From Candidatus Aenigmatarchaeota archaeon (GTDB taxonomy: Archaea; Aenigmatarchaeota; Aenigmatarchaeia; GW2011-AR5): a DNA stretch of 64,000 nucleotides. Positions within the stretch are counted from its first letter, which is position 1, and every line of letters begins with the position of its first letter. Both the position numbers and the translations under genes were made by a program. Shown piece after piece: positions 21,695 through 28,835 of the stretch. The DNA lies in assembly GCA_016187335.1 (NCBI GenBank), contig JACPJW010000001.1:768001-832000 (forward strand). The letters run 5' to 3'. The notes beneath the pieces were generated by a model. The model ran no database searches. It saw only the letters and a program-made list of their open reading frames with translations, and was not told where the DNA came from.

Positions 21695-21724
21695 AGCAAC
21701 TTTTTCACAAAAAGTTGCATCAAA
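21695..21724 (-). repeat. REP-like palindrome unit
   Basis: Minus strand TTTTGATGCAACTTTTT-GTG-AAAAAGTTGC. Confidence 0.7.
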
Positions 21725-24600: not shown

Positions 24601-25248
24601 TTATTTCTTCCTATTCGGCTGTGTTTTCATCCAGACCCACGCCGCGACAGCGCCGAACAGGAAGCCGCCGACGTGCGCCCAGAAAGCGATGCCGCTGCCC
24701 GAGCCGCCAACAAGGCTTGTCGTGCCGAGGAAAAGCTGCATCAGAAACCAGAAGCCTATCATGTACTGCGCTGATATGGTGCCGCTGTAATATCCAGACA
24801 GGATACGCACGCGGACATCCGGAAAGAATATCCAGTAAGCGCCAAGCACGCCTGATATGGCTCCTGAAGCCCCTATTGCCGGTATGCTGGAGCCGATATT
24901 TGTCAGGTAATGCGTGGCTGTAGCTGCTACCCCCGAAAGCAGGTAGAAAACGACAAATTTTGCCTTGCCTAATTTGTCCTCAACGTTGTCGCCGAAAATC
25001 CACAGGTACCACATGTTGCCGAAGATGTGGTCGAAGCCGCCGTGCAGGAACATAGAAGTGAATATGGTGAGCAGCGAAGCGGCCGCGGGCTTGAAGCCGT
25101 AATTGTCAATAACAGCTTCGAAATTAGACAGCGACCACAGGAAAATCAGGACGTTTGTCGCAATCAGCGCATAAGTAACGTAGGCTCTGCTCTTCGCTAT
25201 GTTCTCGTCCTTGTAAGGGAAAAACTGTCCTTTCATGAAAACCATCAA
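24601..25248 (-). CDS. Rhomboid intramembrane serine protease
   Basis: FLHGGFDHIFGNMWYL, GDNVED, GASGAISG, AHVGG. Confidence 0.95.
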   Translation of the reverse strand: MMVFMKGQFFPYKDENIAKSRAYVTYALIATNVLIFLWSLSNFEAVIDNYGFKPAAASLLTIFTSMFLHGGFDHIFGNMWYLWIFGDNVEDKLGKAKFVVFYLLSGVAATATHYLTNIGSSIPAIGASGAISGVLGAYWIFFPDVRVRILSGYYSGTISAQYMIGFWFLMQLFLGTTSLVGGSGSGIAFWAHVGGFLFGAVAAWVWMKTQPNRKK

Positions 25249-25393: not shown

Positions 25394-25564
25394 ATGAGCT
25401 ATGTGGTTGCTTCGCAGGTGAAGGAACTGATAAAGAAGCACGAGATGCAGTGCGCTTCGGACTTCTGCGACGCTTTGGACAAGGTTGTGGAGGCAAAGGT
25501 TGCAAAGGCGACTGAGCGCGCAAAGAGCAATGACAGGAAGACTGTCAGAGCGGGCGACTTGTAA
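25394..25564 (+). CDS. Singlet histone-fold protein, alpha3-truncated (Bd0055 / face-to-face type)
   Basis: MSYVVASQVKELIKKHEMQCASDFCDALDKVVEAKVAKATERAKSNDRKTVRAGDL*; RKTVxxxD L2 motif; GAGGTGA SD; 56 aa so absent from the track. Confidence 0.85.
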   Translation: MSYVVASQVKELIKKHEMQCASDFCDALDKVVEAKVAKATERAKSNDRKTVRAGDL

Positions 25565-25719
25565 GGCGGGTTTCTTGTTTTTTAATCTGTTTCTTGTTTT
25601 TATTTTTACTAAGCAGAAATAGAAGCGCAGATATTAAAGTAGAAAACGAGAAATATTTTCTGCCTTAGAAAAAGGTTATAGAAAATAAAAGAAAAAAATC
25701 AGAATACTTTTTGACCCTT

Positions 25720-25758
25720 TTGATCAAATGAAACTTTTTGAAAAAAGTTTCATCAAAA
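25720..25758. repeat. REP-like palindrome unit between convergent histone and SWIB-like genes
   Basis: ATGAAACTTTTT-GA-AAAAAGTTTCAT (25728-25753) followed by CAAAA; reads TTTTGATGAAACTTTT... on the minus strand. Confidence 0.75.
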
Positions 25759-25760
25759 TT

Positions 25761-25913
25761 TTACTTCCCAGACAGCTTGTGCTTCTTGATGTATACCCAC
25801 AGCTTCTTCGTCATCTCGCTCGGAGCGAGCTTGCCTGAGCCGAATACGTCCTCAACAGTTTCCTTGCGGCCCTTGAAGCTTATGGAATATCCGCCAAATG
25901 CTTTCTTTGCCAT
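25761..25913 (-). CDS. Short SWIB/MDM2-like protein (N-terminal two-thirds of domain)
   Basis: MAKKAFGGYSISFKGRKETVEDVFGSGKLAPSEMTKKLWVYIKKHKLSGK*; the SEMTKKLWxYIKxxxL motif matches SWIB helix 2; AGGTGA SD. Confidence 0.65.
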   Translation of the reverse strand: MAKKAFGGYSISFKGRKETVEDVFGSGKLAPSEMTKKLWVYIKKHKLSGK

Positions 25914-26254
25914 TATTGTTCACCTGAGAATAATTAGGAAAATAGTTTTTTAAGTCAGAAAAAAGGCAGTCTTAACGACTAGGAAGAGGTGATAATCAAG
26001 TCAATTCAATATCCCAGCAAGTCGTAACGAACTCTTATATGAGCACCCTGCGCTACCATCCAATAAGGATCTAGTCACAATCTTTCGCCCTGAGTTAGAC
26101 AAAGTACAGCGAACCTTTCAGAAATTCTTCCCATCATAAAATCATGGAAAATGCCATCTACATACTGTAACGATTTTTTTCGAATATCTCTTTCTTCCCG
26201 AACATCTCGGATAAATGTAGTTACGCCTTTCAACATTTGAGAAATCATAGTAAT

Positions 26255-26593
26255 TTATTCCCTCTGTATCCTTGCCCTGCTTGGGGTGACTATAATCCAG
26301 TCGTCGCCGACGCCTGCAATGTCGCCGTTCAGGTTGCCGACGCTGAGCTTTAATTTGTTCACGCACTGCTTCAGGTCGTCCAGGTTGGTTTCCTTGAGAT
26401 CGCGCATTCCTGCCACGACAATGTTGCCCGCCTTTATCTGCTTTATGATGCGGTCCACTGCGCCCAGAGAATCAATCTTGTCAACAACAACGTGAACCAT
26501 CGGAAGCTCCTCTTCGCCTTCCAGCTCGTGGTATTCTTCCGCAGCCGGCTCCGGCTCTTCCTTCTTTTTCCTGAACATGTCCAATAGTCCCAT
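26255..26593 (-). CDS. sepF: Archaeal SepF-like cell-division protein (DUF552)
   Basis: N-terminal amphipathic MGLLDMFRKK, GNIVV, GDIAGVGDDWIIVTPSxxRI. Confidence 0.85.
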   Translation of the reverse strand: MGLLDMFRKKKEEPEPAAEEYHELEGEEELPMVHVVVDKIDSLGAVDRIIKQIKAGNIVVAGMRDLKETNLDDLKQCVNKLKLSVGNLNGDIAGVGDDWIIVTPSRARIQRE

Positions 26594-26773
26594 GATATCA
26601 CGTAATAAAACGCTGCTGAACTTTTTAAGGTTATCACGGAAAAAACTTTAAGAAGGGAAAATCAATCCGGAAATGCAACTGAAAGCCTGTTATGAATGTA
26701 ATCCACCATAAAGGACTTTCACTTTCTGTTTTACGATTTTTTATAGTTTCAAGTGCATTTTATCTTGATATTC

Positions 26774-26905
26774 ATGGGTATACTAAGCCTCGAAGACAAG
26801 CCCGTTGCAGGCAAGTGCGCCATGTGCGGCGGCAAGATGGAAAGGGCGGCATTAGGCTACATCTGCAACGCCTGCAGGGACGGCATGAGGCAGAAGAAGC
26901 AGTAA
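26774..26905 (+). CDS. Small zinc-finger microprotein (CxxCGG...CxxC)
   Basis: MGILSLEDKPVAGKCAMCGGKMERAALGYICNACRDGMRQKKQ*, 43 aa. Confidence 0.65.
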   Translation: MGILSLEDKPVAGKCAMCGGKMERAALGYICNACRDGMRQKKQ

Positions 26906-26933: not shown

Positions 26934-27359
26934 ATGGCATTACAGGTTGCGAAAAGATGGCATATGAAACAAAATTCATCAGGAAAGTTTTCGCGAAGGT
27001 ATATCATTATTTCTGACACAGTATTAGAAAACTGGAGACAGGGAAATTCTGCATTCTTTGACAACGGTTATAGATGCGCATTGCCTCTAGGCTACGTTGT
27101 CCAGAGGCCAAAGGGGCCTACAAGCCCGAGACCGGGTGTAATTTACCATGAATACGAAGTTTCATGTATAAAGGACGGGTCAAGGTCGCTAATGGCTGGC
27201 TATGCCCACGAAAATGAGGTAAATATACTTTACTCGGGATTTCATGGATGGACTTCATGGAAAGAAGTCGGAAGAGCGCTGCGTAAAATATTTTGCCCTG
27301 ACGGCGGAAGGATGGTCAGGGGAAAATTGCATCAAAACATAAGGAGAGAGCCCGACTAA
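26934..27359 (+). CDS. Hypothetical protein
   Basis: 141-aa ORF, no motif. Confidence 0.55.
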   Translation: MALQVAKRWHMKQNSSGKFSRRYIIISDTVLENWRQGNSAFFDNGYRCALPLGYVVQRPKGPTSPRPGVIYHEYEVSCIKDGSRSLMAGYAHENEVNILYSGFHGWTSWKEVGRALRKIFCPDGGRMVRGKLHQNIRREPD

Positions 27360-27386: not shown

Positions 27387-28835
27387 CTATCCCTTCTTCC
27401 ACAGCTTCTTCCTCATCTTCGCGAGTTCGTAAGGATACCTGAATGTATATTCAACGGCGTGCTTCAGCCCGTGGGCAGGCTCAACGGCGACGGCGCGCCA
27501 GAACACGTAGCGCACGGGTATGATTTCATGCTCCTTTGTTTTGAGGTCGGATATCATTGTCATGAACACAAGCGACGCAAGGCGCAATAAAAATGATGCA
27601 AAAAATATTATCTGGAGCCCGCTCATGAAAAGCAGCGCCCTGCCTTCCAGGTGAGCCACGATAAAATAGCCGCCGAGAGAGCCTGCGACTGTAGCAAGTC
27701 CCCTGAGAAATGTATGGTTGGCAACATACTGCGGCCTTTTCTCGCTGGGCGTAACGGCCAGCAGGAAATTGAAGGATACAAGGTCAAATCCCGCCCATGC
27801 AAAAGACGAGAAGAAGTTGGCTATGAGTATGTGGCCGGGCGACGAGACGAACAGCCATATGAAAGGCACGAAGCATATCATTATGCCTGTTACAGCTAAA
27901 ATTTTTCTCTCGCCATAGCGGTCGCTGAGCTGCCCCCAATAGGGCTGGAAAATGAGGGTGATTAATGCTTCAAAGGAAACCAGAGCCGCGAACCATAAAT
28001 AAGAAATTTTGAGGTCGCGCAGCATGTAGACGGCAAAAAAAGGCCCCGCAATGCTGACGGCAAGGCTCATTGCTGCAAGGAAGAGTGTGAAAAGGACGAA
28101 GTTCCTGTTTATTCTCAGCGCCGCCGCAAGGTCTTTCAGGCTCAGCGTGTAAGAATGCCTGTAGTGATATACAACCGGCGTCTGCGGTTCGTGCATCTTC
28201 GCAAAAAAGTACACTGAAGCGAGGCCAAGAACGACGGAGACGGCGAATATAAGCGAGAAGCCGTATTCAGACAGCAGGGCTCCGGAAACCAGCGTTGCCG
28301 TCAGCCCCGCAAGGCCGGCAATCATGTTCCTCCTGCCGAAATAATGCCCTCGCATGTCCTGCGGGACAATGTCGCCCATCAGGCTGCTCCATGCCGGCGC
28401 GCGCATGGCGGTGAAGAAGCTTACCGCAAATAGCAGTGAAATGAGCAGATGCACGGGGCTGTTAACATTGACAAAGGGCAGCAGCAGTATGGGTATCCAC
28501 AGAATTCTGGAAATGAGCGTGGAAAACGTCCATATTGTTTTCCTGGAAAAGTACTGCGTGAGCAGCGCTCCCGGTATCTGCGCCAGGGTTTCTCCAAGCG
28601 TTCTCAGCGATGCGATTAACGCTATTTCGCTGCTCGTTGCCTTCAGGGCGAGCGCAAAGGGAGTGACGAAAGAATTGTTGATGCTTGATGCCGCAGAGCT
28701 GAGAGCCCCTTCTATTGTTGAGAAGTGCATGCTCTTCTTTGCACGGTCGTCATAGGGCATCTTTTTTTCGGAAACCCCGCCCTTCACGAGGACTTGCCGC
28801 TCTTTTTCGCCCAGCTTGCGGTTAGCAGGAGGCAT
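27387..28835 (-). CDS. Major facilitator superfamily transporter
   Basis: About 12 TMs, WSSLMGDIVP, motif A WGQLSDRYGERK. Confidence 0.92.
   Translation of the reverse strand: MPPANRKLGEKERQVLVKGGVSEKKMPYDDRAKKSMHFSTIEGALSSAASSINNSFVTPFALALKATSSEIALIASLRTLGETLAQIPGALLTQYFSRKTIWTFSTLISRILWIPILLLPFVNVNSPVHLLISLLFAVSFFTAMRAPAWSSLMGDIVPQDMRGHYFGRRNMIAGLAGLTATLVSGALLSEYGFSLIFAVSVVLGLASVYFFAKMHEPQTPVVYHYRHSYTLSLKDLAAALRINRNFVLFTLFLAAMSLAVSIAGPFFAVYMLRDLKISYLWFAALVSFEALITLIFQPYWGQLSDRYGERKILAVTGIMICFVPFIWLFVSSPGHILIANFFSSFAWAGFDLVSFNFLLAVTPSEKRPQYVANHTFLRGLATVAGSLGGYFIVAHLEGRALLFMSGLQIIFFASFLLRLASLVFMTMISDLKTKEHEIIPVRYVFWRAVAVEPAHGLKHAVEYTFRYPYELAKMRKKLWKKG

Follow-up and report, generated by a model that had tools for sequence, protein, structure and literature searches.

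A conserved 50-residue archaeal protein representing one half of the SWIB/MDM2 domain and probably completing the fold by homodimerisation

The SWIB/MDM2 domain is usually seen as a eukaryotic module of chromatin and of p53 binding, with a few bacterial outliers, and a pseudo-dyad relates one half of it to the other. In the described proteins of this kind (BAF60/SMARCD, UAF30, plant SWIB-4, chlamydial SWIB and TopA-SWIB) the domain comprises ~75-85 residues and features a core motif, VFG...(P)SEMTKKLW-x-Y(I/V)K, preceded by an FGG-x-x-I strand. Plant SWIB-4, a protein of 12 kDa with an isoelectric point (pI) of 10 and an H1-like motif, is a DNA-binding and DNA-compacting protein able to complement an E. 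coli hns mutant (PMC4154389). Here we analyse a locus at positions 25394-26905 of a 64,000-nucleotide stretch of genomic DNA from a Candidatus Aenigmatarchaeota archaeon (contig JACPJW010000001.1; the whole stretch is referred to as the window, and window coordinates are used throughout). The gene at the centre of this study (25761..25913, - strand) encodes a protein of 50 aa, here called mini-SWIB, in which both the core motif and the strand ahead of it are found. It shares with SWIB/MDM2 proteins the occurrence of small basic stand-alone forms, some of which have Lys-rich tails like that of SWIB-4; it is unlike the known members in having DPANN archaea as host and in its length, which corresponds to only one of the two pseudo-symmetric halves, so that the fold would need two chains. 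The host is a small archaeon from groundwater; its genome has ~1.01 Mb in two contigs and is 91% complete, and the relatives are labelled in the databases as metagenome-assembled genomes of Aenigmarchaeota or Diapherotrites. Three further short genes share the locus, coding for an alpha3-truncated histone, SepF and a zinc ribbon. All four are confirmed as real genes, at the positions given for them in the preliminary description of this DNA.

Sequence comparison establishes mini-SWIB as a homologue of the N-terminal half of the SWIB/MDM2 domain. Its sole family match is to Pfam SWIB (PF02201; E 8.6e-5, 22.7 bits, below the cut-off of 25 bits), and the match covers only positions 10-36 of the 74 in the profile; a complete SWIB domain of ~74 positions, with the two halves in one chain, is not contained in the 50-aa protein. 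Pfam SWIB is matched at E<=1e-3 by 21 of 36 relatives, and no other family is. Divergent members of the type found in family f9, 48-80 aa long, come with precomputed PF02201 matches, one of them under the JGI name 'RSC6'. An exhaustive search of 1.84 billion representative sequences with the mini-SWIB profile gave 384 matches, including the true double-SWIB proteins P0318 (E 6e-10) and P0341 (E 1e-8), both of which score ~1e-54 on Pfam SWIB. The best sequence match of the profile in the PDB is the SWIB domain of UAF30 (7z0o_G, E 0.004). The SWIB-like identity that the preliminary description had assigned to the gene product is correct insofar as the protein is a genuine, conserved, truncated homologue; what it lacks, however, is the entire second half of the domain and not merely a C-terminal hairpin. 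A search of the host's own genome revealed no other SWIB-like segment besides mini-SWIB.

Conservation identifies the 50-aa gene as an independent gene, with the half length as its native form. Database homologues number 412 proteins of 50-52 aa, at 72-100% identity. When 36 diverse members were aligned, there were no internal gaps, the stop position was the same in all, and 20 columns were invariant (K3, F6, G7, G8, Y9, I11, F13, G15, E21, F24, G25, P31-K36, W39, K43, K50). Six-frame search recovered the intact 50-codon frame, free of internal stops, from 128 of the phylum's 371 genomes; of the 98 high-quality ones, 39 have the gene. Some families have it near-universally (37/43 genomes in f1, the family of the window; 17/21 in f9, 7/7 in f13, 7/8 in f27), and the same search did not find it in f20 (0/23) or f24 (0/19). 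A Shine-Dalgarno sequence AGGTGA (25920..25925, - strand) is placed 6 nt ahead of the ATG, and ~25-40 nt upstream of the gene there is an A/T-rich, TATA-like stretch, TTAAAAAACTATTTT; the two would appear to be mini-SWIB's own expression signals.

How a half domain might be completed is suggested by metagenome proteins of ~96 aa that consist of two mini-SWIB-like units in tandem (P0273, P0307, P0328, P0261). Each unit can be aligned over the full length of the 50-aa protein and has the FGG and MTK-x-(L/I)W-x-Y motifs, and each matches the N-half of the Pfam SWIB model; in P0256, the pair of units spans Pfam SWIB positions 5-73. These proteins combine two still-similar repeats in a single chain and belong to organisms other than those having mini-SWIB, with P0273 encoded on bacterial-looking contigs (L091/L092) together with PlsX and an outer-membrane beta-barrel gene. 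The AlphaFold2 (AF2) model of P0273 (predicted local distance difference test score, pLDDT, 74.6) passes twice through strand-helix-helix. Foldseek searches with it ranked SWIB structures (1v31 at E 3e-5, 1uhr, BAF60) ahead of MDM2/MDMX, at a TM-score of ~0.6 over ~90 columns, and VIA-align placed 75-86 residues on SWIB/MDM2 structures with Z 9-10 and root-mean-square deviations of 2.2-3.5 A, involving residues 1-96. Structure prediction thus shows the two-unit relatives folding as a complete SWIB/MDM2 domain, and they can be regarded as a naturally occurring 'fused dimer', a control to set beside the single unit of the archaea. For mini-SWIB as a homodimer, modelling gave a score of 0.43 vs 0.01 for the best control, just reaching a pass mark that is attained by 20 of 30 solved homodimers and by 1 of 23 solved single chains. 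The runs agreed on at least 97% of contacts, with a pLDDT of at least 75, and the modelled self-interface (residues 8-31, 34, 35, 38, 41) coincides with the invariant columns. Taken together, the half-length match, the SWIB fold of the tandem relatives and the homodimer model lead us to read mini-SWIB as a single-repeat half-SWIB that probably homodimerises to rebuild the SWIB/MDM2 fold. Its strand, short helix and long helix would constitute one repeat of the pseudo-symmetric fold; the contact between two copies would be made by the conserved strand FGGY-x-I-x-F and by the helix region E-x-VFG, and a SWIB-like four-helix cleft domain would be regained in this way. Two mini-SWIB genes occur in some genomes (G222, G030, G192, G008, G115). 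Those in G222 (G222:C2; L072 4944-5628) lie in tandem ~330 bp apart, possibly a stage toward the fused two-unit proteins.

Regarding the activity of such a dimer, the strongly basic character of mini-SWIB is suggestive (pI 10.07; 12 K+R vs 4 D+E; net charge +8). Many of the relatives additionally have N-terminal tails of 15-80 residues, rich in Lys/Arg/Ser or in Ala/Lys, that resemble those of histone H1 (for f9, L052, L054 and L056-L058; further P0203, P0240 and P0198). Because of the charge, the tails in relatives and the analogy to SWIB-4, a nucleic-acid- or chromatin-associated role is the likely one and our best guess; binding of nucleic acid by mini-SWIB itself is suggested on the same grounds. 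By analogy with MDM2, the dimer could also possess a peptide-binding cleft. Among the relatives, a few (P0097, P0108, P0110) start with an amphipathic motif of MGLLD/MGILD type, like the N-terminus of SepF, and some of the N-terminal extensions may be gene-calling artefacts.

The interpretation that we consider reasonably probable is composed of three elements: that the 50-aa gene encodes a single SWIB/MDM2 repeat; that the protein, a probable homodimer of 11 kDa and pI 10, would serve in association with nucleic acid or chromatin, or as an adaptor holding a helical peptide in its cleft; and that histone, sepF and zinc ribbon would be separate housekeeping genes with their own signals. Several points weigh against it. 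The mini-SWIB score remains just under the gathering cut-off of Pfam SWIB. The AF2 model of the monomer, with helices at 20-24 and 31-44, reaches only middling confidence (pLDDT 67), and no PDB structure matches it: Foldseek returned nothing at E<=10, an uninformative outcome for a model so small and middling. The dimer score is borderline, and it was obtained with our own alignment and on a calibration that is only rough. Lastly, basic charge and tails are generic properties, which fit binding of RNA or the ribosome equally well.

The gene next to mini-SWIB (25394..25564, + strand; Shine-Dalgarno GAGGTGAT 5' of it) encodes a protein of 56 aa that is, by its profile matches, a true alpha3-truncated histone of the face-to-face type (for the class, see Schwab et al. 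2024, PMC11390915). The family profile matches HLp (9QT0, E 6e-14; HLp is described in the preprint bioRxiv 10.1101/2025.05.08.652872), HBb/Bd0055 (8FVX, E 5e-12) and 9F2C (E 1.5e-11), and reaches HMfA at E 0.1 only; the NCBIfam archaeal histone model finds the protein at E 1e-3, below its cut-off. As in HLp, HTkC and the related HBb/Bd0055, which is dimeric, a short alpha2 is followed by the RKTV..D loop, and the chain ends right after it. The 74 close homologues of ~56 aa, labelled 'DUF1931 domain-containing' at NCBI and 'histone H3/H4' at JGI, share an invariant ending RAKSNDRKTVR.GD(L), which in the window copy reads RKTVRAGDL. Unlike HLp, HTkC and HBb/Bd0055, the window histone is a lineage-specific paralog beside a second and more widespread one. 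The second alpha3 paralog is encoded outside the window (G000:C2:350063-350224; E 9e-16 to the profile) and is of the type common to most other families, whereas the window copy reaches E<=1e-28 in f1 and a handful of sister families and nowhere else. The label of histone given to this gene in the preliminary description is well borne out by the HLp and HBb matches.

In the alternative that a histone-partner module exists at this locus, the half-SWIB dimer would bind the alpha3 histone as chaperone, loader or chromatin adaptor, the pair would be co-regulated, and a link to division might come through sepF. Eukaryotic SWIB subunits are found in chromatin remodelers (compare the BAF60 matches), and within f1 the physical arrangement is in favour. 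The synteny survey covered +/-5 kb around mini-SWIB at 61 loci from 11 families (16 of f1, 45 of ten others), with all open reading frames (ORFs) clustered and the recurrent ones annotated. The common order in f1 is RNase HII - MFS - zinc ribbon(<) - SepF(>) - mini-SWIB(>) - histone(<) - rhomboid. By genome coordinates, the histone gene lies within ~1.5 kb of mini-SWIB in ~26 of 37 f1 genomes, and it stays within ~1 kb in most of them though the orientation changes: the pair is mostly convergent, as in the window with its spacer of 196 bp between histone (+) and mini-SWIB (-), is tandem with SWIB first and a 90-bp spacer in genus g9, and is 4 kb apart in g13. Outside f1, a single case was found. 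In G142 of f23 (G142:C85; L044 4822-5156), a different alpha3 histone paralog comes right before mini-SWIB, its stop codon overlapping the mini-SWIB start codon, and sepF is 4.3 kb downstream of the pair. Such a translationally coupled pair is the single independent hint for a histone-SWIB link.

The broader comparison argues against the module. Histone and mini-SWIB are within 5 kb of each other at 13 of the 16 f1 loci vs 1 of the 45 loci of other families, so that adjacency is absent from 44 of the latter. It is equally absent from 73 of the 75 metagenome loci (for 36 of the 75, the flanks reach 1 kb or more on either side), the remaining two being f1-type. The f1 genomes are kin and do not count as independent instances, and one extra adjacency among ~15 independent contexts, with a chance expectation that we roughly estimate at ~5%, is suggestive only. 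Apart from antisense shadow ORFs, no cross-family neighbour of mini-SWIB beyond lineage-level synteny was found in the 61 loci. Co-occurrence of the two genes is not specific either: histone is common in families without mini-SWIB, among them f20 (histone in 18/23 genomes, mini-SWIB in 0/23) and f24 (16/19 vs 0/19), likewise f8, f6, f10 and f16. SepF and zinc ribbon adjoin mini-SWIB only within f1, and a conserved division module is likewise not supported. Conserved adjacency and co-occurrence had been chosen beforehand as decisive for the module idea, and since neither is conserved, the idea mostly fails: adjacency holds for the family of the window and does not extend beyond it, and the survey lends no support to a histone-SWIB-division module as a general feature. 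That histone, sepF and zinc ribbon are grouped with mini-SWIB reflects a gene order inherited within a single family of Aenigmarchaeota-like DPANN archaea. On balance, we regard a histone-partner module as unlikely; the data do not bear out a histone/division module, which, if real, would have made a more striking result.

The gene contexts outside f1 bring up another alternative, of similarly small probability, in which the half-SWIB dimer is a translation- or RNA-associated protein that binds rRNA, the ribosome or the RNA-processing machinery rather than chromatin. In f9, f13 and f15, cbf5 and the S13-S4-S11-rpoD operon enclose the gene, which shares their strand and in many cases comes right before S13. 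In f39 and f4 it adjoins genes of Spt4-RpoE-S24e, SRP54 and eIF2-alpha type, names that were assigned by reading the first residues of the sequences and not by family scan. The very high conservation combined with positive charge is reminiscent of ribosomal proteins, and look-alike clusters of the protein atlas include members annotated as SWIB_eIF2D. Yet the occurrence of mini-SWIB in only about one third of the phylum genomes (and in the 39 of 98 of high quality) implies that it is not a universal part of the ribosome. Small genomes are, moreover, dense in information-processing genes, so neighbours of this kind are expected by chance, and the contexts vary between families: in f23 the gene is found with PCNA, an RPA3-like OB protein and HIT, in f27 with TFB, and in f39 with subunit D of a V-type ATPase.

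Somewhat more improbable still is that mini-SWIB does not pair with itself, its fold being completed on a different, unrecognised partner, or the protein being largely a disordered basic peptide. The monomer model, which offers two helices only and at middling confidence, would be compatible with this, as would the borderline dimer score. Speaking against it, no second SWIB-like piece was found in the host's own genome, the fused tandem relatives exist and are predicted to fold as SWIB, and the invariant residues map onto the modelled self-interface. We retain the homodimerising single repeat as the preferred interpretation.

A bolder version of that interpretation, which we offer as an outside chance, has mini-SWIB as a living single-repeat SWIB/MDM2 protein and obligate homodimer, either equivalent to the pre-duplication ancestor or a reversion to that state. 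In these reduced archaea, it would act as a minimal chromatin adaptor whose symmetric cleft takes up a helical stretch from the alpha3 histone or from a different DNA-bound factor. If true, histone and mini-SWIB would constitute, with just two genes, an archaeal equivalent to the partnership of histone and SWIB in eukaryotic remodelers; remodeler subunits were not found in the surveyed mini-SWIB neighbourhoods, the rest of the genome not having been searched for them. The importance of mini-SWIB goes beyond this version. It defines a widespread and strongly constrained archaeal family encoding one SWIB/MDM2 half and, together with the tandem relatives, provides a concrete and testable case of a fold arising by homodimerisation, then gene duplication and fusion. 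It also supplies DPANN archaea, whose chromatin is barely characterised, with a small basic protein that is a candidate for association with chromatin or nucleic acid. Full-text literature searches did not find archaeal or half-size SWIB proteins described, which is not proof that none exists.

The weakest alternative, that mini-SWIB is what remains of a full-length SWIB gene, a pseudogene of one, or else a chance ORF, can appeal to the coverage of half the Pfam model at a score below the cut-off, and it is effectively refuted by conservation, considering that a length of ~50 residues and the stop position recur in 128 genomes and in hundreds of metagenome contigs at 72-100% identity, and that the AGGTGA ribosome-binding site is strong.

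The remaining two genes of the locus are sepF and the zinc-ribbon gene. SepF (26255..26593, - strand; 112 aa) gives a full-length match to PF04472 (E 8e-11, 42.4 bits with the cut-off at 27, profile positions 1-72 of 72) and has an amphipathic start, MGLLDMFRKKK; it is a typical archaeal SepF, as had been proposed, and position is all that links it to the small genes. At 10 of the 16 f1 loci, sepF is upstream of mini-SWIB on the same strand. Divergent from it, the zinc-ribbon gene (26774..26905, + strand) encodes a protein of 43 aa with the cysteine motif CxxC-N16-CxxC and only sub-threshold matches to zinc-ribbon families of Pfam. Earlier described as a Zn-knuckle gene, it proves to be real, and it occurs in 10 of 13 sampled f1 genomes; with the window protein as query, it was found in 0 of 137 others. 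It evolves fast (40-54% identity). The claim that three of the four genes are invisible to standard ORF cut-offs needs correcting: the small genes are below 60 aa but are called in public collections, where they go by the names 'hypothetical protein', 'DUF1931 domain-containing protein' and 'histone H3/H4'.

The locus is flanked by genes for a rhomboid protease (24601-25248, - strand) and an MFS transporter (27387-28835, - strand). Scans of the window with Rfam and for tRNA genes gave no matches. Just 3' of the zinc-ribbon gene, an ORF of 141 aa (26934-27359, + strand) belongs to no Pfam or NCBIfam family and to no conserved cluster. The spacer of ~250 bp from sepF to the mini-SWIB promoter region (25998-26251) is unusually long for a 1-Mb genome and does not align even to a congeneric genome. 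An ORF of 57 aa between sepF and mini-SWIB (ORF57, 26075..26248) was rejected as a gene and is taken as non-coding or spurious, having no family match, no place in a conserved cluster and no DNA that is alignable with the congeneric genome.

Between the convergent histone and mini-SWIB genes there is a palindrome with perfect 12-bp arms (12+2+12; 25728..25753). Its hairpin core, AACTTTT-N(1-8)-AAAAGTT, is present in 7 copies in the 64-kb window vs 0 expected (at 21698, 25732, 35329, 35356, 47417, 53281 and 53469, with 35329/35356 forming a tandem pair), and this recurrence rules out the palindrome as a unique operator. In the congeneric genome G191, the orthologous site lacks the copy at 25732, which suggests a mobile or rapidly turning-over element. 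The unit had been recognised before as a repetitive extragenic palindromic (REP) element, in agreement with the palindromic structure, the dispersed core and the variation of copies between congeners. Folded as RNA, the palindrome has an energy of -12 kcal/mol (z -2.0), with T-runs on both strands, and judged from these sequence properties the REP-like hairpin may double as a bidirectional terminator for the two convergent genes.

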